DNA of 64,000 bases from Minisyncoccota bacterium (GTDB taxonomy: Bacteria; Patescibacteriota; Minisyncoccia; Phycocordibacterales; UBA9973), in NCBI GenBank assembly GCA_028718635.1, contig JAQULK010000001.1, forward strand, positions 316,692 through 380,691. The letters are read 5' to 3'. Position 1 is the stretch's first letter; every line of letters starts with the position of its first letter. A program made the translations under genes and the position numbers. The notes below the pieces were generated by a model. That model had not been told where the DNA came from and did not search any database. It saw only the letters and a program-made list of their open reading frames with translations. This document shows positions 362-35,350 of the stretch, one piece after another.

Positions 362-3300
362 ATGAAAAATTTGGAAAAAAATTTTAAAGAAGGATATAAC
401 AGACTGAATAAAGCCCAAAAAGAAGCGGTAGATATTATTGATGGGCCGGTGATGGTGGTGGCGGGGCCGGGTACAGGCAAGACTCAGATATTGGCACTGC
501 GGATCGGTAATATTCTTCTTAAAACTGATATTAAGGCGGATGGCATCTTGTGTTTAACTTTTACAAATTCTGCTGTAAAAGCTATGCGCGAGCGTTTGCG
601 TAAATACATCGGGGTTGAGGCTTCAAAGGTAAAGGTTTCTACTTTTCATGGTTTTGGTATGGATATATTAGATAAATATTTCAACATATTAGGGCTTGAT
701 GAAAAACCTGAATTAATGAATGAACGGGATTCCGTGGCTCTCTGTGATGATATTTTGCAAAACAATGATTGGGAATATATTCGTCCGAGAGCCGATGTGT
801 CGCGATATTTCAAGGATTTAAAAGCGATGATTTCTTTCTTAAAACGCGAACGTATAAGCGGAGAGGATTTGAAAAAAGAAATAAACCGAGAAATTGAGAA
901 TATCAAAAGTGATCCTGCGAGTATTTCTTCTCGAGGAGAAAGCAAAGGCAAAATAAAAAAAGAGGTGGAAAAAAAGATCGAAGGACTTCATCGCACAGAA
1001 GAAGCAGTGAAATTTTATGCTCTTTATGAGGAAATAAAAAAAGAAAAGAATTTATTCGACTATGACGATATTTTGGAATCCTTGGTGCATATCGTGGAAG
1101 AATCCGAGGAAGCAAAAAATTATATCAAAGAAAGTTTTCTTTATGTTTTAATAGACGAACATCAGGATTCTAGCGGGGTGCAGAATGAGTTTTTGGAAAA
1201 AGTTTGGCAAGAAGAAGAAAAACCGAATATCTTTGTCGTAGGTGATGACAGGCAATTAATTTACGGTTTCGGAGGGGCATCCTTGCAATATTTTGAGAAT
1301 TTTAAAAATGCTTTTGGCAAAGCAAAATTAATTACCCTAGAAGAAAATTACCGTTCAACTCAAAAGATTTTAGATTCTTCGCATAATTTATTACAGAGTT
1401 CCATTTCTAAAGGAAAATTAAAGAGCAATCACAAAGAAAATCATGCATTACGTTTGATCGAAGCTTATTACCCTAGAGACGAAATTATTTTTTCAGCGTT
1501 GGAAATAAAGGAAAAGTTAAAGTCCGGATATGACTTTAATGATATAGCTATTTTGGTGCCAAAGAATCGCCAAGTGCGAAGCACTGTGGCTATATTAAAA
1601 GACATGGGTATTCCAGTGGCTGGTATGGAGAGTGTTAATTTTTTTGATGTGCCTGAAACTATTTCTTTTTTTAGGATTTTGAAAATAATCGCTAATCCCA
1701 ACAATGGCGACTCTTTAGCTTTATCTTTTTTTGATAAACTGTCTGGAATTTCTCCGCTTCAGGCGCATGAATTTTTAAAAAATAATAAAATGCGCGAGTT
1801 TTCTTTGTTGAATATAGTTGAGGAGAAAAGTGATTTATTTCATGATTCAAACGAAGTAAATATTTGGATTCAAAAATTGAAATCATGGCTTGATTCTTCA
1901 ACAGAACCTTTATATTTCTTTATTCAAAGAGTAGGTACGGAATTCTTGCTTGACACCGCCAAGGATCACCGAGATCTTATGACGAGGATAGAGGTTTTGC
2001 GAACCGTTCTTCATTTAGTTTTGGCGGAGATAGAAAAAAATCCAAAACTGACTTTGGCAGAATTTCTAAGCTTCTTTGGGCGTATAGAAAATTATGGAGA
2101 AAATATACCACTGGCAATATTTACTCCGAATGAGGGGGTGAAAGTTTTGACCTTGCATGGTTCAAAAGGTTTAGAGTTCGACTATGTCTGGATAGCGCAC
2201 ATGGACGAAAAGTCTTTTTCGGGAAGCAAGCGCGAGGGATTTGCTTTGCCCGCGTCCATAAAAGAAAAAATTGAAAAAAAAGATGAAATAGTGATGAAAC
2301 GCGAATTATACGTGGCCATTACTCGCGCGAAGAGATTTTGCACTATTTCTTATGCTTTAAAATCATACACCGGAGGCGATCAAGAGCTTGCGCATATCAT
2401 TGCCGACCTTGAAGATAATTTTGAAAAACAAAGTGCTGAAGAAACAGAAAAAATAATTTTAAAACGCGACAAGCTTGCATACGTAGAAAATAAAATGATA
2501 GCAGAAGAAAGTCTTGATTTGAAAGGTTTGGTGAAGTTGGTTTCTCGGGATTATGAAGACCGCAAAATATCGGTTTCTCTCCTTAATAATTTCTTTGAAT
2601 GTCCATGGAAATGGTATTTTAGGAATTTATTGCAATTGCCAGAATCAAAAAGCGAGAGCTTAGAATTTGGAAATATCGTTCATGGATCTATAGATGCAAT
2701 TTTAAAGCTTGGCAAGAAACCGAGCGAAGAAGAATTAAAAAATATAATTTCACACCAAGTGCGAAAATCAAATTTTGGAAATGATAGGAAGCAAAAAGAA
2801 TTATTCAATCTCGCTTTAAAAATAATTTCGAGGTGGACGAAATCAAGGCTTCCGGAGATAGGCAAAAATAGGGAAAATGAACAGAGTGTTTCTGTCAACG
2901 ACGACAGATTTCCAAATTTGAATATTTATGGAAAGATAGATTTGATAGAAAATCTACCTGCCCGACACGCTGACGCGAGTCATGCGGGCGGGGAAGGGAA
3001 CAACGTTCGCGTTACAGATTTTAAAACTGGAGGTGTTAGAAAAAAATCCGATATTGAAAAGATAAACGAGGAGGGGAGGATGAGTGATTATATGCGCCAA
3101 CTCGCCATGTATTCGTATTTGCTTAATAAGAATCCAAAATGGAAGAAAAATGTAGTAGAGTCAAAGCTTGAATTCGTGGAAGCATCAAACACGAAGGATA
3201 TTTTTTATAGTACCGTAATAAACAAAGAGCAGATCGACCTCTTGATCAACGATATTAAAGATTATGATAATTTAGTTAAAAATGGCAAATGGGTAGATAG

Positions 3301-3776: not shown

Positions 3777-4498
3777 TGAACGAGGAAAATAAAAAAGGTA
3801 AAATACACCCGCTTTCAATGTTAGCTGAGGAGGCCTATCAGGCGTTTTCTGAGATGGGCTTTGAAATTGCAACTGGTCCAGAGCTTGAAAGTGATTGGTA
3901 TAATTTTTATGTTTTAAATTTCCCCAAAGATCATCCAGCGTTGGATATGCAAGATACTTTTTGGATTAAGGATCAAAAAGGAAAAGTTTTACGCACACAT
4001 ACGACGACTACCACAGCACGAGCCATAGAACAAGCAGGTAAAGATGGCAGAATGCCTTGCGCCTTTATTTCTGTTGGAAAAGTTTTTCGCAATGAAGCGA
4101 CTGATGCGACTCACGAAATGCAATTTTACCAGATAGATGGAATCATGGTGGGTAATATTGAAGATGGAATTTCTGTTGCGAATTTAAAAGGAGTACTCAC
4201 GAAATTTTATAAAAAGATGTTGGGCGAAAATACTGAGATAGAATTTCGTCCCAGTTTTTTCCCTTTTACTGAGCCTTCGCTTGAAGTTCACGCAAAGTTC
4301 AACGGGAAGTGGCTCGAAATGATGGGTGCTGGAATGGTTCATCCGAATGTGCTTCGTAACTGCGGACTTGACCCTGCAAAAGTGCAAGGATTCGCTTTTG
4401 GTGGAGGTCTCGATCGGATTGCGATGATTAAATGGAACATATCCGATATACGATTTTTTTATCAGGGAGATTTGCGTCTTAATCAATTTTCAAAATAA
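3776..4498 (+). CDS. pheS: Phenylalanyl-tRNA synthetase alpha subunit, minimal catalytic-core form
   Basis: FPFTEPS, GAGMVHPNVL, GFAFGGGLDRIAMI class II motifs. Confidence 0.92.
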   Translation: MNEENKKGKIHPLSMLAEEAYQAFSEMGFEIATGPELESDWYNFYVLNFPKDHPALDMQDTFWIKDQKGKVLRTHTTTTTARAIEQAGKDGRMPCAFISVGKVFRNEATDATHEMQFYQIDGIMVGNIEDGISVANLKGVLTKFYKKMLGENTEIEFRPSFFPFTEPSLEVHAKFNGKWLEMMGAGMVHPNVLRNCGLDPAKVQGFAFGGGLDRIAMIKWNISDIRFFYQGDLRLNQFSK

Positions 4499-4504
4499 AT
4501 TCAG

Positions 4505-6322
4505 ATGAAAATTTCTTATAATTGGCTAAAAAGTTATATTCCTGAAGTATCTAATACAGATAATCTTGTAGATATTTTTAACTATCATCTTTGCGAAGTT
4601 GAAGGCCTAGAGAAAAAAGGTAATGATACTGTTTTTGATATAAATATTTTACCAAATCGCGCGCATGATCTGCTTTCCCATCGGGGCGTTGCTCGCGAGC
4701 TTGCTTCACTTTTAGATATAAAATTTATTGATCCGATTTTAAAATATAAAATTCCCGAATCAAAACCAACTAAATTAATAAAAGAAATCAAAAGCGATAA
4801 ATGCCGCCGTTATATGGGGCGGGTTATTCGCAATGTGAAAGTGGCGCCTTCGTCAGAATGGGTCGTGAAGTATTTGGAATCGATGGGGCAGAGAAGTATA
4901 AATAATATTGTGGATGCCACAAATATTGTGATGTTTGACTGTGGACAGCCGGCGCACGTTTTTGATTTAGAAAAAGTAAAAGATTTGAGATTGCAGGTGC
5001 GATATGCTGAAAACGGAGAGAAAATTACTTTACTTGGCGGAGGAGAAAAAATCATGAATGATACTATGATGGTTATCTCTGATGATAAAGGTAATTCGCT
5101 TGATATTGCTGGTATAAAAGGCGGAACATATGCCGAACTAAATCAAAACACCACGGAGATAATTTTAGAATGTGCGAATTTTGACCCCACGAGTGTCCGC
5201 AAAACTGCTCAAGCATTGAATATTTTTACTGATGCGCGAAAACGTTTTGAAAATGATTTGTCGCCGGAGCTGGCAGAGTATGGAATAAAAGAATTGTCTG
5301 CGCTTATTTATGAAATGTGTCCAAACGCTATATTTGAGGATATCGTGGATATTTATCCGGAAAAACAAAAAGAAAGAAAGCTTTCTTTTTCCGCTGAAAA
5401 AATTTCAAAGATTTTAGGTTTAGATGTATCTATTGAGGAGATAGAGAATATATTAAAGAGATATAATTTTACATATGTAGAAGATGGTGGACGGTTTGAA
5501 ATCGTAGTGCCACCGATGCGTCTTGACCTAGTAATCGAGGAAGATATGGCTGAGGAGATCGGCAGAATTTTGGGTTACGACAAAGTCAAAGCGCAAATGC
5601 CTGAAATTGGTTTTCAACCAAAGCAAAATGAGACTTATTTCAAAATATCTTTTGCGAGAAATAAATTGCTAGAAGAAGGATATTCTGAAGTGATGACAAG
5701 CAGTTTCTGCGATGAGGGAGAGGTGGAGGTCTTGGCTTCTGCTTCTGATAAAAATTTCTTAAGAACGAATCTGACAGATGGATTGAAAGAGAGCTTAAAA
5801 TTAGATCAAGTGAATGCCCCATTGCTTGGAATAGAAAAAGTTAAAATTTTTGAGATTGGAACAATTTTCAAGAAAAGCGGAGAAGAGATGCACGTTGCTT
5901 ACGGAGATAAAAAAAGAATAAAAGAAATGAAATTGAAAGATTTTCTACCACCTCGCCCTTCGGGCACTCCTCTTCAGAAAGGAGGAGAAGAATTTCCTCC
6001 CCGCCTTGATAAGGAGGGGGCAGGGGGTGGTAAATTTAAAATGTGGTCACTGTTTCCTTTTATTGCGCGTGATATCGCTGTCTGGGTGCCGGAAAATGTC
6101 CAGAACCAGGAAGTAGCAAAAATTATAAAAGAAAACGCGGGGGGAATGGTGGTTCGCGGACCGGAACTTTTTGATGAATTTAAAAAGGGAGATAAAATAT
6201 CTTATGCTTTTAGATTAGTTTTTCAATCTTATGAAAGAACTTTGAATGACCAGGAAGTAAACGATATTATGACCAAAATAACTGATAAAATAAAGGAAAA
6301 TGTTGATTGGCAAGTGAGGTAA
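4505..6322 (+). CDS. pheT: Phenylalanyl-tRNA synthetase beta subunit (short form) carrying an in-frame palindromic element insertion
   Basis: MKISYNWLKSYIPE N-terminus typical of PheT; B3/4 and B5 regions; adjacent to pheS. Confidence 0.88.
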   Translation: MKISYNWLKSYIPEVSNTDNLVDIFNYHLCEVEGLEKKGNDTVFDINILPNRAHDLLSHRGVARELASLLDIKFIDPILKYKIPESKPTKLIKEIKSDKCRRYMGRVIRNVKVAPSSEWVVKYLESMGQRSINNIVDATNIVMFDCGQPAHVFDLEKVKDLRLQVRYAENGEKITLLGGGEKIMNDTMMVISDDKGNSLDIAGIKGGTYAELNQNTTEIILECANFDPTSVRKTAQALNIFTDARKRFENDLSPELAEYGIKELSALIYEMCPNAIFEDIVDIYPEKQKERKLSFSAEKISKILGLDVSIEEIENILKRYNFTYVEDGGRFEIVVPPMRLDLVIEEDMAEEIGRILGYDKVKAQMPEIGFQPKQNETYFKISFARNKLLEEGYSEVMTSSFCDEGEVEVLASASDKNFLRTNLTDGLKESLKLDQVNAPLLGIEKVKIFEIGTIFKKSGEEMHVAYGDKKRIKEMKLKDFLPPRPSGTPLQKGGEEFPPRLDKEGAGGGKFKMWSLFPFIARDIAVWVPENVQNQEVAKIIKENAGGMVVRGPELFDEFKKGDKISYAFRLVFQSYERTLNDQEVNDIMTKITDKIKENVDWQVR

Positions 6323-18916: not shown

Positions 18917-20829
18917 TTTGTTTTTGCCATTTGGAATTTAATATTTTCTTCTTTGCCTTCTGTTATATTGCTTATTTGAAAAACAGAATTTTGTTGGGTA
19001 ATGTTTTTTACTGCTGTCATCGAGCCGTCTTTAAATAATTTTAATTCTAAAAGCATGCCTTTCATTGTCGGCTTGCTCCAAGATTGGTCAAAAATAAAAT
19101 TGCCAAGTGAATAGGCAATATAACCATTTTTGTAAATTTCGGTATCTTCTACGATATGCGGGTGTGAACCAATAATAATTTTTGCACCATCATCAATCGC
19201 TCTATGGGCTAATTCCTCTTGTCTTGCGTTATGTTTTGTCTGATACTCTACGCCGAAGTGAAAAGCGACGACTAAATAATCCACTTGTTTAGCTGCATTT
19301 TTAATTATTTGATCAAAATTGGGATTGTTTGCGAGGAGAATGCCTGCTTTGCCAGCGTCGGCAGGCAAATTGTTCGGACCAACGTCAGAAAATCCCAGGT
19401 AGCCGATCTTCATTCCATATTTTTCAATAATGGCTGGAGTTTCAGCTTCTGTTGCATTGTTTCCTCCGCCAGTATAAAGGATTTCATTTTCTTTTAGACG
19501 CGCGAGCGTATCAATAAAGGCGTTATGTCCCCAATCATTAATATGATTGTTTGCCAAAGACAAAACGCTTAAACCTGCACCTTTAAGAGTCGGGATGACG
19601 ACGGGATCCATTCTAAAGGAATATAAATTTTTCTGATCTGCCCCTTTGTCCGAAACTGGACCTTCCAAGTTAGCAAAGAAGATGTCCGTGTTTTTTGATA
19701 ATTCAAGCAAGGTGTCTGATTTTTCAAAAAGCTGAGAATAGTCATTGTTGAAATTTTTTATGACTGAATTTTTTACGCCGCGATCGAGCATTATGTCGCC
19801 GGCAAAAGACAAGGTAATAAAATTCTGATCTCTGATGTCCGGCATTCCGATTTTTTCCTGCACCCAATTCGTATTTATATCAGCAGCTCCGCCGTAGTAA
19901 ACATTTTTCCTTAAATATTTTAAAAGAGTTTCTACGTCATTATGACGGTCAGAACTTTGAAGTAAGGTAATGGCAATGGGTTGAGAACCAGTTTTTCCAA
20001 GAGGCAGATCAAAGAGAGAAACGACGGTTTCCTTTGCAGGGTCTGTATAACCGCTTTTTCCTCCCATGTATCCTTCATTCTTCAGGAACTGGCTAATGTT
20101 TGACCAACTGTGAGTTTTGGTGGAATAACTGTTTTTGGTAGTGATTTTAAATAAATCCGATTTTTGCTGAGCTATATAACCGGCCAATTTAAACATATCG
20201 GACACGGTTGATTGATTGTGGGAAGTGAGTCCGCTAGGGTCTTCATAAGAAGTAGAATTCATTTGCAGAGCTCTCGCTTCCTGATTCATTTTCGCGATGA
20301 AACTGCTTCTGCCGAAATATAAAGCAAGCGCTTCCGCTGCGTCGTTGCTTGATTCCAAAAGGAGCGGGTATATTAGATCAGAGATTTTTATTTTTTCTCC
20401 CAATCTCAATTCTCCGTTTTGGCCGGAAGTTGAGAGGGCGGTCTTGGTTATTTTGGTCGTCTCGTTTGGGTTTGCTAATTTACTGGCAACGAGCGCGGTC
20501 ATTAATTTGGAGGTAGAGGCAATCGGAAATTTTTGATCTTGATTTTTTGCAAGAATTACTTCTCCGGTATTCAAGTCGCCGACTAGATAAGCTTTAGCAG
20601 AAACTTTTGGTCCACCTTTTGTATCATTGTTTATATAATAATATTGGAGTTTTGTTGATTCTGGGGCGACAAGTTGGACTACTGAGGCCTCGTTATTTTT
20701 TGTTTGGAATATTTTTATAGAATTAATATTGTTAAAAATAAAGGATACAAAAAAAATACCAAGTATTATTGGAGGCATTGTCCAAAATATTAATTTTGTT
20801 TTATTTTTTATTTCTTTAATAAATTTCAT
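18913..20829 (-). CDS. Membrane-anchored fusion: D-alanyl-D-alanine carboxypeptidase (PBP5-like, SxxK = ASTSKLMT) and a C-terminal CapA/PGA-type metallophosphoesterase domain
   Basis: STSK motif; ANNHINDWG and GGGNNATEAE motifs of the CapA family. Confidence 0.7.
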   Translation of the reverse strand: MKFIKEIKNKTKLIFWTMPPIILGIFFVSFIFNNINSIKIFQTKNNEASVVQLVAPESTKLQYYYINNDTKGGPKVSAKAYLVGDLNTGEVILAKNQDQKFPIASTSKLMTALVASKLANPNETTKITKTALSTSGQNGELRLGEKIKISDLIYPLLLESSNDAAEALALYFGRSSFIAKMNQEARALQMNSTSYEDPSGLTSHNQSTVSDMFKLAGYIAQQKSDLFKITTKNSYSTKTHSWSNISQFLKNEGYMGGKSGYTDPAKETVVSLFDLPLGKTGSQPIAITLLQSSDRHNDVETLLKYLRKNVYYGGAADINTNWVQEKIGMPDIRDQNFITLSFAGDIMLDRGVKNSVIKNFNNDYSQLFEKSDTLLELSKNTDIFFANLEGPVSDKGADQKNLYSFRMDPVVIPTLKGAGLSVLSLANNHINDWGHNAFIDTLARLKENEILYTGGGNNATEAETPAIIEKYGMKIGYLGFSDVGPNNLPADAGKAGILLANNPNFDQIIKNAAKQVDYLVVAFHFGVEYQTKHNARQEELAHRAIDDGAKIIIGSHPHIVEDTEIYKNGYIAYSLGNFIFDQSWSKPTMKGMLLELKLFKDGSMTAVKNITQQNSVFQISNITEGKEENIKFQMAKTN

Positions 20830-22817
20830 TATATTAAAACATAGTCTATAGTTTTTTTCTCCAAATCAACTGCTTTTACTTTTATTTTAACATGATCGCC
20901 AAGACGATATCTTTTTCCTTGCCTACCGGCAGGCGGGTTCTTTTTTTGCCCGACCAATTCTAGTTTTTTTTCATTAAAAATATAAAAGTCGTCTTTCATA
21001 TCTCGTACTCGTACGAGGCCTTCGCATTTTGTACCTATCTCTTCAACATACATACCCCACTCAGTTATGCCACTTATCACTCCATCAAAACTTTCCCCTT
21101 TGCGTTTAGACATATATTCCACTTGTTTGTATTTTATGGATGCTCGTTCGGCTTCCGTTGCCCGTTTTTCTTGTTCAGAAGCGATTATGACAATTCTTTC
21201 ATATTCTAATAATTTTTCTTTTAATTTATTATTTGTCACTTTTTTCTTTGCAAGATAATCACTCAATAATCTATGGATCATAATGTCTGGATATCTTCTG
21301 ATTGGGGAAGTGAAATGCGTGTAATATTCAAAAGCTAAGCCATAATGGCCGATATTTTTTGTAGAATAAGTTGCTTTGGCCATAGACCTGATCACGGCGC
21401 GATGTACCGTATCACTCATTATTTTGTTTGGGTTTTTGCTTTTTAAATCTTCAAGTAATTTATTTATTTCATGAGTTGGAATTATCCCGTCTTGTAATGA
21501 TACTTTGTGTCCCAAGCTTCGTAAGAAAAATGCGAGATCAGCCATTTTCTCTTTTGATGGTTCATCATGGATGCGATAAATGGAAATATCTTTTGAGAGA
21601 ACTTTTGCCACTTTTTTATTTGCCAGCAACATAAACTCTTCAACTAGTCTATTGGAATCACCTCGTTCTTTTTTTATTACTTTTATCGGGGTACCCTTAT
21701 CATCTAAAATAAATTTAACTTCTTCTTGGTCAAGTGATATAGCGCCTTTAGCAAATCTTTCTTTGGTTAATTTTTTTGCTAAATTATTCAAAATGGAAAG
21801 CTCTTTATGTAGGGGAGCATTTTCATTTTTTATTGCCTCGCCCGTAGGGCTATGGCCGAGGGCTTTTTCTGCTTCTTCATATGTAAATCTTTTTTTAGAA
21901 TGTATTACAGTGCGACCAAACCATTCATCTTTTATTTCTGCGTTTTTATTAATAATAAATACTGCGCTCATGGTGAGTCGATCTTTGTGGGGGACTAAAC
22001 TGCACAAATCATTCGAAAGAGTTTCCGGGAGCATCGGTATTGTTCTGTCTACTAGATAAACCGAGGTTCCTCTTGTGCGGGCTTCTTCATCTAAAGCGCT
22101 GCCAGGTCTCACATAGTGAGACACGTCTGCTATATGGATGCCGACTTCATACACCTCACCCCCTAGCCCCCTCTCCTTATTAAGGAGAGGGGGGAGAATA
22201 CGAAAAGAAATTGCGTCATCAAAATCTTTTGCATCCTCTGGATCAATCGTAAAAGTTAGTGTTTTTGTGAAATCCCGACGTCCTTCATAATCACTTTTTC
22301 TTATTCCTTCGCGCTTTATTTTTTTTGCTTCTTCTTCTACTTTATTTGGAAGTTCTGAATCAAAACCTTTTTCTATCGCAATTGCATTCATCTCGGTAGT
22401 GTTGTCACCAGGTTTTCCCAAGATTTTTATTACTTTTCCAATGGGAGCTTTTTGCGCGTCTTTCCATGAAACTATTTCCACAAAAACTTTTTGCCCGATT
22501 TTTGCGTTATTCAAATTTTCTTTTGGAATCAAAATATCCGTGTACATTTTCGTGTCATCTGTTTTCAAAAAAACTACATTTTTTTCTTGTTCCAAAACTC
22601 CGGTAAAACGCATTTTTGCGCGAGAAATTATTTTTACTACTTCGGCAGTCTGGCGTTTCTGGCTTTTTGGGTGGAGAAGTATCTCCACCATATCTCCGTG
22701 AAGCGCAGTATTCAAATGCTTAAAATCAATTTCCGGATCTTGTTCTTTATTTTTTCCTATTCCTACGGCTACATATCCCGTGCCTTTTGAGGAGATAGAA
22801 ATAATGCCCTCGGCCAT
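20829..22817 (-). CDS. rnr: Ribonuclease R / RNB-family 3'-5' exoribonuclease with a C-terminal S1 domain; contains an in-frame palindromic insertion
   Basis: RNB domain motifs, S1 at the C-terminus; start chosen at MAEGIISI to avoid overlap with the divergent promoter. Confidence 0.85.
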   Translation of the reverse strand: MAEGIISISSKGTGYVAVGIGKNKEQDPEIDFKHLNTALHGDMVEILLHPKSQKRQTAEVVKIISRAKMRFTGVLEQEKNVVFLKTDDTKMYTDILIPKENLNNAKIGQKVFVEIVSWKDAQKAPIGKVIKILGKPGDNTTEMNAIAIEKGFDSELPNKVEEEAKKIKREGIRKSDYEGRRDFTKTLTFTIDPEDAKDFDDAISFRILPPLLNKERGLGGEVYEVGIHIADVSHYVRPGSALDEEARTRGTSVYLVDRTIPMLPETLSNDLCSLVPHKDRLTMSAVFIINKNAEIKDEWFGRTVIHSKKRFTYEEAEKALGHSPTGEAIKNENAPLHKELSILNNLAKKLTKERFAKGAISLDQEEVKFILDDKGTPIKVIKKERGDSNRLVEEFMLLANKKVAKVLSKDISIYRIHDEPSKEKMADLAFFLRSLGHKVSLQDGIIPTHEINKLLEDLKSKNPNKIMSDTVHRAVIRSMAKATYSTKNIGHYGLAFEYYTHFTSPIRRYPDIMIHRLLSDYLAKKKVTNNKLKEKLLEYERIVIIASEQEKRATEAERASIKYKQVEYMSKRKGESFDGVISGITEWGMYVEEIGTKCEGLVRVRDMKDDFYIFNEKKLELVGQKKNPPAGRQGKRYRLGDHVKIKVKAVDLEKKTIDYVLI

Positions 22818-22909
22818 AGACCTACGGGCGAGGTCTTGCCGTATGTGTTGTTTATTTAAATTATTTTTCACCTTATAAATATAGCATAATTTAAACAACC
22901 ATAGAGTGA

Positions 22910-22937
22910 TTGACAATCATTTAAAATATGGTAGAAT
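22910..22937 (+). promoter_or_regulatory. Strong promoter: -35 TTGACA (22910..22915), 16-nt spacer, extended -10 TGgTAGAAT (to 22937); the ATG at 22945 is 7 nt downstream, so the transcript is leaderless
   Basis: Direct consensus match. Confidence 0.55.
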
Positions 22938-23917: not shown

Positions 23918-23968
23918 TCACCTCACCCGGCCTTTGGCCACCCTCTCCTTAATAAGGAGAGGGGCTGG
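23918..23968 (+). repeat. Family D nested palindromic element, copy D1 (outer cacctcaccc...gggggtgaggt, inner ccctctccttaataaggagagg)
   Basis: Inverted copy at 45137..45198; related in-frame copies inside pheT, smc-like, rnr and dnaG. Confidence 0.85.
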
Positions 23969-24077
23969 GGGTGAGGTCTTATTGCTACAAAATTTTAATT
24001 AGTTATAATTACAGGTATAGCAGTATGTCAGGTCGTAACACTGCAAGTTTAGTAAAAGATTAAATTAAAAAAACATT

Positions 24078-32199: not shown

Positions 32200-34053
32200 A
32201 TGAACTCTCCTGTCCAACAAATTAAGGAGAGGCTATCAATTGAAGAAGTAGTCTCTTCTTATATAAAGCTAGAAAAGGCAGGCGCAAACCTAAAAGCAAA
32301 ATGCCCGTTTCATAACGAAAAAACTCCTTCCTTTTTTATTTCCCCTGATCGAGGCACTTACTATTGTTTTGGATGCGGGGTAAAGGGCGATATTTTTACT
32401 TTCGTAGAAGAATTTGAAGGTCTTGATTTTAGAGGAGCTCTTAAATTGCTTGCCAGCAGAGCGGGAATTGTTTTGGAATCTTACAATCCGAAAGATCAAA
32501 GAAATCAGAGCGAAAAAGAAAGATTATATGAAGTCATGGAAGAAGCGACTGTTTTTTTTGAGAAGAATTTAAAAGAAAATCCGGAAGTTTCATCTTATCT
32601 AAAAAATAGGGGGCTGAATGATGAAAGTATAAAAAATTTCCGTATTGGTTTTGCCTTATTGGAGTGGCGTAAACTTTATGATTATTTAAAATCTAAAAAT
32701 TTTTCTGACAGTGAAATAGAAAAAGCAGGACTTGCAAAGACCCCCTCCGCCGTTGGCACCTCCCCCTTGATAAGGGGGAGGCTGGGTGGGGGTCTGTATG
32801 ACAGATTTCGTGGACGAATAATGTTTCCTATCTCGGATTCTAGCGGACGGGTTATTGCTTTTTCCGGAAGAATCTTTGTTGATGACGGAAAGTCTGCGAA
32901 ATACCTAAATAGCCCTGAAACTTCTATCTTTAATAAATCCGCTGTTCTTTTCGGCATAGATAAAGCTAAAGACCCCATTCGGAAAAATGACTTTTCTATC
33001 TTAGTTGAAGGTCAAATGGATTTGATTTTATCTCACCAAGCAGGATTTAAAAATACCGTAGCTTCCTCGGGGACAGCCATGACTGATTCAGTATTGTCAA
33101 AAGAAAATATTATAAATAACCTAGGACTTATCACCAGATTGTCAAAGAACATGGTCCTTGCTTATGATGCTGATAGAGCGGGGGTGAGTGCGACTAACCG
33201 TTTTGCTAAGATTGCATTATCTTTGGGTATGGATGTAAAGGTGGCAGATATACCCGAGGGAATGGATCCGGCTGATTTGATTTCCCGTGGCTATAGCCAA
33301 ATGGGCGAGGCAAAAGTTGGAGTGGATGCCTGGCGGGAAGCGATAAGGAATTCGAAACATTTTATCGAATTTATGCTGCTGAGGATCTTAAAAGATACTA
33401 ATTCTGACAATAGAAAGGCTGGCAGGGAAATAAAGGAACGCTTGCTTCCTTTTGTGAATGAGATAGAAAGCTCCATAGAAAAATCACATTTCATTACATT
33501 AATCAGTAATAAATCAGGGATTCCTGAAAATGCCCTGATGGAAGATTTGAAAAAAGTAGAAACTGAATTTAAGAATGAAAAAGAAGATATCAAAATCGCC
33601 AAAGAAAATATAGAGAAAAAATTAAGAAAAGACCCGATCGAGCGAAGGCTTTTAGGTATAGCTTTTTGGCAAGAGAGTCTGTCGGACGTTGGACGTCCGA
33701 AATTCGGACGTCCAACGTCCGACAAAACGTCCGACAAACCTAGAATTGATCCAGAATTGATTTTTAAAAAATTAGAAAAAGCAAAAGAAAATGTTAAAGA
33801 AAAATATAAAGACAGGAGAGAGGATTTGATTTATGAGGTAGAAGAATTTTACTCAAATAATGAAAATCTGGAAAAAGACGTAGAGGAAATGCTGCTCAAT
33901 ATAGAGGAAGAATATTTAAATGAAGAATTTAGCATTAAGATGATAGAATACCAGAATTGCAAAGATAAAATAGAAAAGGAAGAAATTTTTAAAAAAATAA
34001 GTGAAATAACAAAAAGAAAAGAAGATATTAAAAATAGTCGTATAAGAAAATAA
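32200..34053 (+). CDS. dnaG: DNA primase carrying two in-frame palindromic insertions
   Basis: Zn-ribbon CPFHNEKTPSFFISPDRGTYYCFGCG; TOPRIM EGQMDLI. Confidence 0.9.
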   Translation: MNSPVQQIKERLSIEEVVSSYIKLEKAGANLKAKCPFHNEKTPSFFISPDRGTYYCFGCGVKGDIFTFVEEFEGLDFRGALKLLASRAGIVLESYNPKDQRNQSEKERLYEVMEEATVFFEKNLKENPEVSSYLKNRGLNDESIKNFRIGFALLEWRKLYDYLKSKNFSDSEIEKAGLAKTPSAVGTSPLIRGRLGGGLYDRFRGRIMFPISDSSGRVIAFSGRIFVDDGKSAKYLNSPETSIFNKSAVLFGIDKAKDPIRKNDFSILVEGQMDLILSHQAGFKNTVASSGTAMTDSVLSKENIINNLGLITRLSKNMVLAYDADRAGVSATNRFAKIALSLGMDVKVADIPEGMDPADLISRGYSQMGEAKVGVDAWREAIRNSKHFIEFMLLRILKDTNSDNRKAGREIKERLLPFVNEIESSIEKSHFITLISNKSGIPENALMEDLKKVETEFKNEKEDIKIAKENIEKKLRKDPIERRLLGIAFWQESLSDVGRPKFGRPTSDKTSDKPRIDPELIFKKLEKAKENVKEKYKDRREDLIYEVEEFYSNNENLEKDVEEMLLNIEEEYLNEEFSIKMIEYQNCKDKIEKEEIFKKISEITKRKEDIKNSRIRK

Positions 34054-34081: not shown

Positions 34082-35350
34082 ATGAAAAAAATAAAAAACA
34101 AAAAGAAAATAAAAAAGGCAGTAAGAAAAGTTGTAAAAAAGATAAAAAAAGTTCAGAAAAAGCAAAAGATACCTGCCCGCAATGCTACGCATAGCGTTGC
34201 AGGCGGGAAGAAAATGAAAAAGACAGCAAAGAAGAGCAAGACTGTCAAAAAAGAAAAAATTAAAAAATTGTCTTCTGCCGAGAAAAAGGCTGAAAAATTA
34301 GATGCTTTGGCAAATAGTCTTATAGAAAAAGGAAGAAAACGCGGATTTATCACTTATGATGAGATATTGAAAACTTTTCCGGATATTGAAAACAATATTT
34401 TATTTTTGGATGAGCTTTATGAAAAGTTTTCAATAGCTTCCATTGATGTTCTAGAAGGAGGAAATTTACTCAATTTAGATATTGATCTAAATGATAAAGA
34501 TTTGAATAAAGGGAATATGCATGATTCTATCCAGATGTATTTGAAGGAGATAGGGCAGTATCCTTTAATTTACGCTAGTGATGAAAAAGATTTAGCCAAG
34601 CGCATTGAGCATGGTGATGTAGAAGCGAAGAACTTATTAGCACGGGCAAATTTGCGTCTGGTTGTTTCTATCGCAAAAAAATACGTGGGCAGAAGTGCGA
34701 ATTTGACCTTGCTTGATTTGATTCAAGAAGGGAACCTCGGATTGTTTAAGGCGGTTGAAAAATTTGATTGGACTAAAGGCTATAAATTTTCTACTTATGC
34801 CACTTGGTGGATTCGCCAGTCTATCACTCGGGCATTAGCAGATCAGTCTAGAACCATTCGTATTCCGGTGCACATGGTAGAGACAATTTCTAAATATAAG
34901 CAAACCCATCGCCGGCTTTCTCAGGACTTGGGTAGAGAACCGCTTGCTGAAGAGATTGCGACTGAAATGGGTATCCCAGTTGAAAAAATTCATGTCATTG
35001 AAAACATCTCGCAGGAAACAGTCTCCCTCGAACAGCCAGTCGGAGATGATGATGATAAATCTACACTAGAGAATTTCATTCCGGACGATAAGATTTTACG
35101 TCCAGATCAAGAATCTTCTAGAAGAATTCTATCTGATCAAATCCGGGAAGTGCTAGATGAATTAAACCCAAAAGAAAGAAAAATTTTAGAAATGCGTTAT
35201 GGTTTGCTCGATGGCATTCAGCACACCTTGGAAAGGGTGGGGGAAGAGTTTGGAGTAACCCGTGAGCGTATTCGTCAAATCGAAGCGAAAGTTCACGAAA
35301 AACTCCGCCAACACGAAAAGATCGCCAGACTAAAAAATTACTTTGATTAA
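34082..35350 (+). CDS. rpoD: RNA polymerase sigma-70 factor with a highly basic Lys-rich N-terminal extension (about 75 aa)
   Basis: Regions 1.2-4.2 conserved ([11 protein letters not shown] ... [24 protein letters not shown]). Confidence 0.9.

Follow-up and report, generated by a model that had tools for sequence, protein, structure and literature searches.

The gene for DNA primase, dnaG, lies immediately after rpoC and directly upstream of rpoD in a 64,000-nucleotide (nt) stretch of Minisyncoccota bacterium DNA (contig JAQULK010000001.1 of assembly GCA_028718635.1), here called the window. The part of dnaG that encodes the C-terminal region of the protein carries a perfect palindrome, which we interpret as an inserted copy of a dispersed hairpin family of the REP (repetitive extragenic palindromic) type (Table 1). 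P0001, the protein to which the dnaG product is identical, is named DNA primase, is ascribed to Candidatus Pacebacteria/Paceibacterota and is encoded on a contig of 671,958 nt.

Table 1. Features of the dnaG locus (window coordinates) and Y1 transposase genes of related loci (coordinates within the locus named).
Feature	Position	Strand	Basis or remarks
dnaG, DNA primase, 617 amino acids (aa)	32200..34053	+	100% identical to P0001; Pfam Zn_ribbon_DnaG, DNAG_N, Toprim
45-bp perfect palindrome composed of two inverted REP-type units (REPIN-like doublet)	33680..33724	.	Arm complementarity, DNA fold, 13-codon excess, matching 39-41-nt sequence elsewhere
Left REP unit, TCGGACGT-TGG-ACGTCCGA	33682..33700	+	8-bp stem, 3-nt loop; core GACGTTGGACGTC at 33685-33697
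Right REP unit, reverse complement of the left (TCGGACGT-CCA-ACGTCCGA on the + strand)	33704..33722	-	Core at 33707-33719
12-bp tandem duplication, ACGTCCGACAAA x2	33715..33738	+	End of right arm doubled; adds in-frame TSDK; private to the source assembly
Y1 gene of L048	1076-1738		Flanked by doublet 967-1010 and, just downstream, a complex copy
Y1 gene of L064	2256-2915		Flanked by doublet 2170-2220, singlet ~2928 and doublet 3040-3090
Y1 gene of L024	767-1483		Copies on both sides; in-frame units within the gene
Y1 gene of L109	3081-3845		Flanked by doublet 3883-3930

The inverted repeat in dnaG is made of two 22-nt arms (33680-33701 and 33703-33724) that are 100% complementary and separated by 1 central base. 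The first-pass annotation, made from the window sequence, had described a 43-bp palindrome, gtcggacgttggacgtccgaa-a-ttcggacgtccaacgtccgac, at 33681-33723; this is present as described, and the repeat extends by one base further on each side. A partial repeat, acgtccgac, was also said to follow the palindrome. A repeat does exist there, but its actual form is a full tandem duplication of 12 bp, with copies of ACGTCCGACAAA at 33715-33726 and 33727-33738, which permits an alternative pairing of 33677-33690 with 33726-33739. Palindrome and duplication are read through in the dnaG open reading frame (ORF) as SDVGRPKFGRPTSDKTSDKP, in agreement with the translation proposed at that stage. Since the 23-nt centre of the palindrome found no match in 100 dinucleotide-preserving shuffles, the palindrome is more than a chance feature. 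As single-stranded DNA the region folds with -28.6 kcal/mol, against -10.75 +/- 2 for shuffled sequences (z = -8.9; none of 200 shuffles was as good); the value computed for RNA is -42.6 kcal/mol (z = -7.6). The window is AT-rich (32-42% GC), so the palindrome forms a GC-rich island in it. With up to three mismatches allowed, neither the centre nor the core matched the window anywhere but at the element itself. A promoter and terminator scan found no T-tract or terminator at the hairpin and promoter-like matches at chance level. The sole Rfam match, to a miRNA hairpin, fell far below threshold (27.7 versus 90 bits) and was dismissed as a generic hairpin match.

The element encodes residues ~494-513 of DnaG, which fall in a loop between helices. 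In the AlphaFold model of the protein (mean pLDDT, the predicted local confidence, 65.7), residues 491-514 have pLDDT values below 50, and residues 497-517 form a coil between helices 479-496 and 518-528. Alignment of 37 DnaG orthologues identified the segment as an insertion: most sequences read ...AFWQES-L-x-x-KKIDP where the window protein reads ...AFWQESLSDVGRPKFGRPTSDKTSDKPRIDP. Among the 120 best DnaG homologues the insertion is present in five (P0001, P0002, P0004, P0016 and P0065) and absent from 115. The filled genes are scattered among the empty ones. The nearest relative of both P0001 and P0002 is the empty P0003 (90% identity over gap-free columns), and the six closest relatives of P0016 and of the filled locus L075 are all empty. 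One empty orthologue, P0025 (ESLSDKK), was considered as a possible excision scar and rejected, its DNA (CTT TCT GAT AAA AAG) being made of ordinary AT-rich codons with no GC-rich remnant.

The DNA of filled dnaG genes was compared at loci L001-L004, L075, L082 and L117-L121, the last five from a metagenome scan, alongside the empty loci L005, L006 and L116. Nine distinct variants of the palindrome (window, L001-L004, L075, L082, L117 and L119) occupy exactly one dnaG codon position, in assemblies from JGI, ENA, Logan and NCBI, and the frame is kept in all of them. All nine have GACGTTGGACGTC-N9-GACGTCCAACGTC in common, and the outer and inner stem positions vary with compensation. Thus, the outer arms read TGTCGGACG/CGTCCGACA in the window, TATCGG/CCGATA in L117, TATTGG/CCAATA in L003, TAGCGG/CCGCTA in L082 and TTACAG/CTGTAA in L004; the inner stem is CCGAA-A-TTCGG in the window and CCGGA-A-TCCGG in L001, with the half-step CCGAA-A-TCCGG in L002. 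The net insertion relative to empty genes is ~39 nt (13 codons), with 12 nt more in the window alone. The five loci of the metagenome scan included two new variants and no 12-bp duplication; the duplication is absent from every other filled dnaG site compared, and is attested by the source assembly only. No direct repeat flanks the element at any filled dnaG site. Two outcomes named beforehand as grounds for abandoning an insertion, conservation across orthologues and an assembly error, were not borne out: the element occurs in a minority of orthologues, and same-site palindromes in independent assemblies speak against an error.

Within the element, the window agrees with each of the other filled dnaG genes at 10-15 of 15 third codon positions; over the 80 upstream codons, 43-71% of synonymous third positions are identical. 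Because third positions are more identical inside the element than in the upstream codons, the element appears to be constrained, or to have a common origin, at the nucleotide level. Covariation was analyzed in 36 gap-free copies. Pair 8-44 is paired in 36/36 copies with 10 double changes and pair 6-46 in 29/36 with 11 double changes; pair 5-47 is paired in 28/36, and pairing decays beyond column 4. The covariation score was 0.212, against 0.101 +/- 0.011 for shuffles, and none of 500 shuffles scored as high. We also considered two small hairpins as the conserved structure and rejected them: pair 8-22 is found in 29 copies versus 36 for 8-44, and pair 28-46 in 13 versus 29 for 6-46, so that the long hairpin is the better kept.

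The palindrome is not confined to dnaG. A scan of one genome per species with the pattern ACGTTGGACGT-N5-25-ACGTCCAACGT retrieved 106 stretches with the invariant core GACGTTGGACGTC / GACGTCCAACGTC, located in many unrelated genes and also in intergenic DNA. Most come from Paceibacterota, Nomurabacteria, Saccharibacteria or unnamed Patescibacteria metagenome-assembled genomes (MAGs), all within the candidate phyla radiation (CPR). Individual genomes hold many loci: at least 13 in MAG_BO118, at least 10 in SO_2016_GW1_104 and at least 15 in one Saccharibacteria MAG. A 39-41-nt sequence identical to that of the window is found in three other genomes, each time in an unrelated gene (L055, L098 and L067), and the genome of L006 (contig of 377,753 nt), whose dnaG site is empty, has a family copy in another gene (L085). 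Twelve sites are each common to 2-12 loci of different genomes. The family pattern gave 0 matches in 2.9 million viral contigs.

In this sample, which was collected with a doublet pattern, 56 of 90 CPR doublets lie inside ORFs that are 120 aa or longer and extend 20 aa or more beyond the doublet on either side. The genic doublets show a strong preference for one reading frame, DVGR (DVGRP..GRPTS), which is used by 45/56 (binomial p = 7e-13 versus 1/3) and, after collapsing copies with a shared site, at 26 of 33 sites. The commonest core-to-core distance is 22 nt (36/89 doublets), which is also the spacing of the dnaG copy. Distances equal to 1 mod 3, from which the symmetric reading DVGRPxxGRPTS results, are found in 46/56 genic doublets versus 20/34 others (Fisher p = 0.026). 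The core contains no stop codon in any frame of either strand. The pattern also matched loci outside the CPR: L023, L047, L050, L058 and L079 (Planctomycetia MAG), L101 (Chitinophagales) and L062 (Chthoniobacterales). These are inverted arrays of the heptamer GGACGTT / AACGTCC, with 2-4 copies per arm, several of them within long ORFs (LDVGRWTLDVGRS...); no Y1 gene was seen in those loci. The CPR core itself amounts to two GGACGTT / AACGTCC heptamers.

Each half of the doublet has the properties of a REP unit. The family unit is a 17-19-nt hairpin, C[A/G]GACGT-TGG-ACGTC[T/C]G, with the consensus C[A/G]GACGTTGGACGTC[T/C]G over 198 units, and the 19-nt unit folds alone as single-stranded DNA with -8.2 kcal/mol, as expected of the short stem-loop (~20-40 nt) of a REP. 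Joined in inverted orientation, the two units of the dnaG copy form the larger hairpin with 22-nt arms. Single units occur too; 22 were found incidentally. In the 198 units, position -2 is C in 92%, position -1 is A or G and position -4 is T in 68%, with weak T/C preferences; there is no GTAG or unpaired CGTC tag at the unit ends, CGTC occurring only within the stem. As a separate observation, the motif TGTGGATAAC / GTTATCCACA, which is the same as the DnaA-box consensus TTATCCACA, lies near 18 of the 198 units versus ~1 expected. It is placed 2-4 nt outside REP units that flank transposase genes (L048 1015-1030 and ~1835; L109 ~3865; L064 ~2150 and ~3025; L115 ~10700) or within the spacer of large-loop doublets (loops of L045, L064, L066 and L088); the dnaG copy of the window is without it.

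A gene of the Y1_Tnp type, two genes downstream of dnaG in L002, led to a tblastn search of all loci. Four Y1 genes, with 69-80% mutual identity, were found to adjoin family copies, on both sides in L048, L064 and L024 and on one side in L109. More distant Y1 genes in L002 and L029 (35% identity) are without this family: no core copy lies near the gene of L029, and that of L002 is flanked by a different palindrome, ACTAGGTCnGACCTAGT. The reciprocal test started from the protein. A search for Y1 homologues returned 3,439 at E <= 1e-5, from CPR sources, some of which are named "REP element-mobilizing transposase RayT" (JGI) or [quoted passage not shown] (NCBI). Three loci (L113, L114 and L115) were picked without regard to the palindrome. 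The gene for P0198 (L114) is flanked by five exact-core units. For P0170 (L113) and P0209 (L115), the variant CGGGTG-TTGGA-CACCCG is found both around and inside the gene; its stem has covaried, and its loop is retained. Thus, 7/7 loci of one Y1 clade are flanked by the REP unit or a stem-covaried variant of it.

The downstream neighbourhood is alike in L113, L114 and L115 (..RAYT..Bact_surface_Ig-like..L10-L12..MS_channel, with RAYT standing for REP-associated tyrosine transposase), and FtsK and PG_binding genes lie upstream in L113 and L115, not in L114. Because the three genes have this downstream neighbourhood in common, the Y1 gene appears to behave as a resident single-locus gene and not as an insertion sequence (IS). 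An in-frame REP unit also occurs within the RAYT genes, at one position (L024 ~1264, L113 10184 and L115 10190), which falls in a low-confidence loop at residues ~60-69 of the protein model.

The proteins, of ~220 aa, pass the threshold of Pfam Y1_Tnp (PF01797; 23.5-41.9 bits versus a gathering score of 23), and H85-F86-H87 and Y145 are invariant in 40 sequences. A PDB sequence search with the RAYT or its profile gave no meaningful match. The structural model (pLDDT 83; predicted template modelling score, pTM, 0.80) matched best the fold of 4ER8_A, which is the REP-associated tyrosine transposase of E. coli in complex with a REP hairpin (E = 2.1e-6; TM score 0.64 on the target; 14% identity in the structural alignment), which ranked ahead of the IS608 and ISDra2 transposases (ranks 2-21). 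Together, these results establish that the family is real, has multiple copies in related genomes and flanks a particular clade of Y1/HUH, RAYT-type genes. The sequence comparisons also indicate that the REP stems co-vary with the transposase clade and that palindromy is kept by compensatory change.

Several other origins of the dnaG palindrome have to be weighed. It could have been made locally in dnaG, by template switching or a snap-back replication error and with no repeat family involved. The single copy in the window would fit such an event, as would the adjacent 12-bp tandem duplication, which shows that slippage occurred at the site. Yet the 13-nt core and the identical 39-41-nt sequence recur at more than 100 positions of other genomes, both within unrelated genes and between genes; because a local error cannot reproduce one sequence across many genes, this origin is next to inconceivable. 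An assembly or amplification artefact, for example a chimeric inverted junction, is extremely unlikely as well. P0001 is known from one contig alone, and no other assembly has the 12-bp duplication, but the palindrome cannot be an artefact of assembly because nine compensated variants occupy one codon position in independent assemblies, with the frame kept throughout.

Other alternatives invoke selection acting at the site itself. The hairpin might be a conserved cis-regulatory structure of a dnaG-rpoD operon, either an RNA processing or stability element or a pause site: covariation is strong at one orthologous site, third positions are conserved above the flanks, rpoD follows directly at 34082, and REPs are reported to stabilise upstream mRNA in other bacteria (PMC3733652). 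However, the hairpin is found in 5 of the 120 closest orthologues, empty sites are without a scar, and the same element occupies at least 32 other sites in unrelated genes; nor is there a T-tract or terminator at the hairpin, or an Rfam family at threshold. We therefore consider a regulatory role improbable. The remaining alternative, that the insertion was kept for its peptide and that DVGRPxxGRPTS is a functional module in the DnaG linker, draws on the one-frame bias (45/56; 26/33 unique sites) and on the position of the insertion in an exposed loop. The same bias is equally expected if harmful peptides are filtered out. Moreover, a peptide module leaves unexplained the two-fold symmetry of the DNA, the conservation of third positions, and the copies that are intergenic or flank transposase genes, and the compensatory changes alter the encoded residues (S/L/A/T and D/N/A/V). 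Such a role is very unlikely.

Thus, the feature is a REP-doublet insertion with nothing primase-specific about it. Probably it is one copy of a dispersed REP-type hairpin family that has a RAYT-type Y1 transposase in relatives, and was placed in dnaG by that type of enzyme in trans. IS200/IS605 and RAYT enzymes are HUH Y1 endonucleases that recognise single-stranded DNA hairpins and generate no target duplication (PMC5581495, PMC3116915, 4ER8). By the same mechanism, a transposase acting in trans on single-stranded hairpin DNA would have inserted the doublet in dnaG with no target duplication. The insertion could then persist in the gene, for its 39 nt (13 codons) keep the frame, it brings no stop codon in any frame, and it would have landed in a surface loop; read as DVGRPxxGRPTS, it would yield a Gly/Pro/Ser/Thr-rich peptide that is presumably tolerated. 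Compensatory change would since have kept its two-fold symmetry, either because the hairpin is selected for or because repair takes place inside the extruded structure. Replication slippage at the hairpin foot probably produced the 12-bp duplication later, and the clean empty sites of close relatives could reflect either precise excision or independent gain.

A number of observations weigh against placement of the doublet by a RAYT in trans. No further core copy lies in the 64-kb window even when 2 mismatches are allowed, and tblastn with three Y1 proteins found no Y1/RAYT gene there (best E ~7). The RAYT..L10-L12 neighbourhood gave no matches in the window either, and none of the 120 best RAYT homologues lies on the 671,958-nt source contig; the dnaG element may therefore be an orphan in the source genome. 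The only NCBIfam family matched by the transposase, NF047646 (REP-associated tyrosine transposase), scores 25-45 bits versus a cut-off of 80. For the same codon position to be filled in scattered dnaG clades, the target would have to be strongly preferred or the element lost cleanly and repeatedly. In the closest filled and empty pairs (the window and L001 versus L005 and L006), diverged flanks hide the borders, the target motif and any target duplication. The doublet pattern used to collect the loci biases the copy numbers and the ratio of doublets to singlets. Finally, no transposition event has been observed.

A more far-reaching reading is that the CPR REP-doublet/RAYT system, instead of being a transient parasite, has come to reside in coding sequence for long periods. 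Identical codon positions in essential genes (dnaG plus at least 11 further shared sites) would be either re-targeted site-specifically or held over very long times, and the symmetry of the palindromes would be upheld actively in the DNA, through correction templated by the hairpin or selection for recognition by the RAYT. We view this as a speculative possibility, rather doubtful at present. If it held, REP doublets would regularly supply loop insertions to the proteins of reduced genomes, and the DnaA-box-like TTATCCACA tag of RAYT-proximal copies might tie the elements to replication.

The assignment turns an odd palindrome in an essential replication gene into a testable REP-type doublet with a nameable cognate Y1 transposase in relatives. 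It extends the REP/RAYT kind to Patescibacteria, where intergenic space is scarce and most copies found are in frame in genes, and it accounts in part for the numerous small, patchy insertions by which CPR protein alignments and annotation are inflated and confused. The dnaG series of nine compensated variants is a clean natural dataset on the upkeep of palindromic symmetry in coding DNA; the aspects worth following up are this series and the recurrent filling of shared codon positions across essential genes.

The window contains other small elements. Family D, a separate GC-rich family, consists of the palindrome CACCTCCCCCTTGATAAGGGGGAGG followed by GGGTGGGGGT and occupies DnaG residues 185-196 (window 32754-32793), where orthologues have related or different insertions (PEGGGGKPSPLGRVGRG and others). 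It is in frame as TSPLIRGRLGGG in dnaG and in ORF 16126-18327. Its further positions in the window are 16980-17019, 5993-6032, 22167-22193, 23936-23975 and 45151-45177, and variants lie within ORFs 4499-6322 and 20829-22916(-). The first-pass annotation had regarded the palindrome described here as unrelated to family D and as a second class of element; in accordance with that, its sequence differs from family D and its core recurs in many unrelated genes. The suggestion that DnaG carries two independent repeat insertions also stands and can be extended, since the protein has at least three patchy insertions, at residues 185-196, 362-373 and ~494-513, all of which are modelled as coil with pLDDT below 50 between secondary-structure elements. 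Of these, SRGYSQMGEAK (residues 362-373; window 33283-33315) is 27 nt long, contains GGCTATAGCC and, besides the window DnaG, is common only to P0047, P0065 and P0067.

ORF 16126-18327 also contains, in frame, AAGGTCGGACCTT...AAGGTCCGACCTT (window 17893-17928), which resembles ACTAGGTCnGACCTAGT. In L002, ACTAGGTCnGACCTAGT occurs at 13560-13600 and 14258-14285 and flanks the RAYT-like gene at 13601-14263; the AAGGTCGGACCTT/ACTAGGTCnGACCTAGT palindromes may represent another REP family with its own transposase. Another repeat family of the window (...GACCGCGACCTGCTTCTAACGGGATGAA...) is found at 339-370, 14427-14458, 47944-48097 and 49209-49360; two of its copies, of 74-96 nt, are separated by 1.26 kb and look inverted in their arrangement. 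The start of rpoD (window 34082-34240) encodes a long, Lys-rich, low-complexity N-terminus that contains a GC-rich segment and looks like another small inserted element. Between rpoC and dnaG, which are adjacent in the window, some relatives have an inserted PemK-type toxin gene (L002 8971-9997; L003 3782-4183), and L002 additionally has an AAA/zeta-toxin-like gene there.

The closest known system is that of REPs and REPINs, their inverted doublets, with the associated RAYTs, described in Pseudomonas and E. coli (Bertels & Rainey 2011, PMC3116915, PMC3337134; Bertels et al. 2017, PMC5581495; 4ER8). The two are alike in the short GC-rich hairpin unit, the inverted pair that forms a larger hairpin, the many dispersed copies in related genomes, the bracketed Y1/HUH gene in a conserved neighbourhood and the co-variation of stem and clade. 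REPINs are, however, defined as extragenic, whereas the CPR family lies mostly in ORFs and in frame (56/90, in a biased sample). The CPR doublets also differ in being near-perfect palindromes with almost no spacer and no GTAG tag, in a transposase of ~220 aa that is distant from the E. coli RAYT (14% identity structurally) and below the NCBIfam cut-off, and in the host lineage, CPR/Patescibacteria. No published description of REPs or REPINs, RAYTs or in-frame palindromes was found in the literature for CPR, Patescibacteria or Parcubacteria; databases already label the transposase RayT.

Intragenic copies have precedents among GTAG/CGTC-tagged REPs, of which both monomers and dimers occur within genes; the dimers encode 20-30 aa, with many located in genes for replication and repair (Di Nocera, De Gregorio & Rocco 2013, PMC3733652). 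The dnaG element is likewise an intragenic dimer, here of 13-17 residues and in the primase gene. Those REPs have an unpaired tag at one end, whereas the CPR family has none and CGTC is part of its stem; the CGTC families are without an associated transposase (PMC3733652), and the CPR family has one. [quoted passage not shown] The IS200/IS605 family (IS608, ISDra2; PDB 2VJV, 2XM3) resembles the present system in its Y1 HUH fold, in the recognition of subterminal single-stranded hairpins and in that no target duplication is expected. Unlike these IS, the dnaG element carries no gene, and the transposase genes of the clade appear to sit at one conserved locus, not in multiple mobile copies.

Rickettsia palindromic elements (RPE) are in-frame palindromic insertions (cited in PMC3733652, refs 13, 14). 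The likeness to them is one of insertion behaviour: a palindromic repeat lies in frame in functional genes of a small AT-rich genome, adds a peptide at a tolerated position and, here, leaves the ORF full length. RPE-1 measures ~100-150 bp, and no transposase is known for it; the dnaG element has 39-45 bp and a cognate Y1 transposase in relatives. What is new, therefore, is a REP/RAYT-type family in Patescibacteria that is RPE-like in being intragenic and that belongs to a kind of selfish DNA already known.

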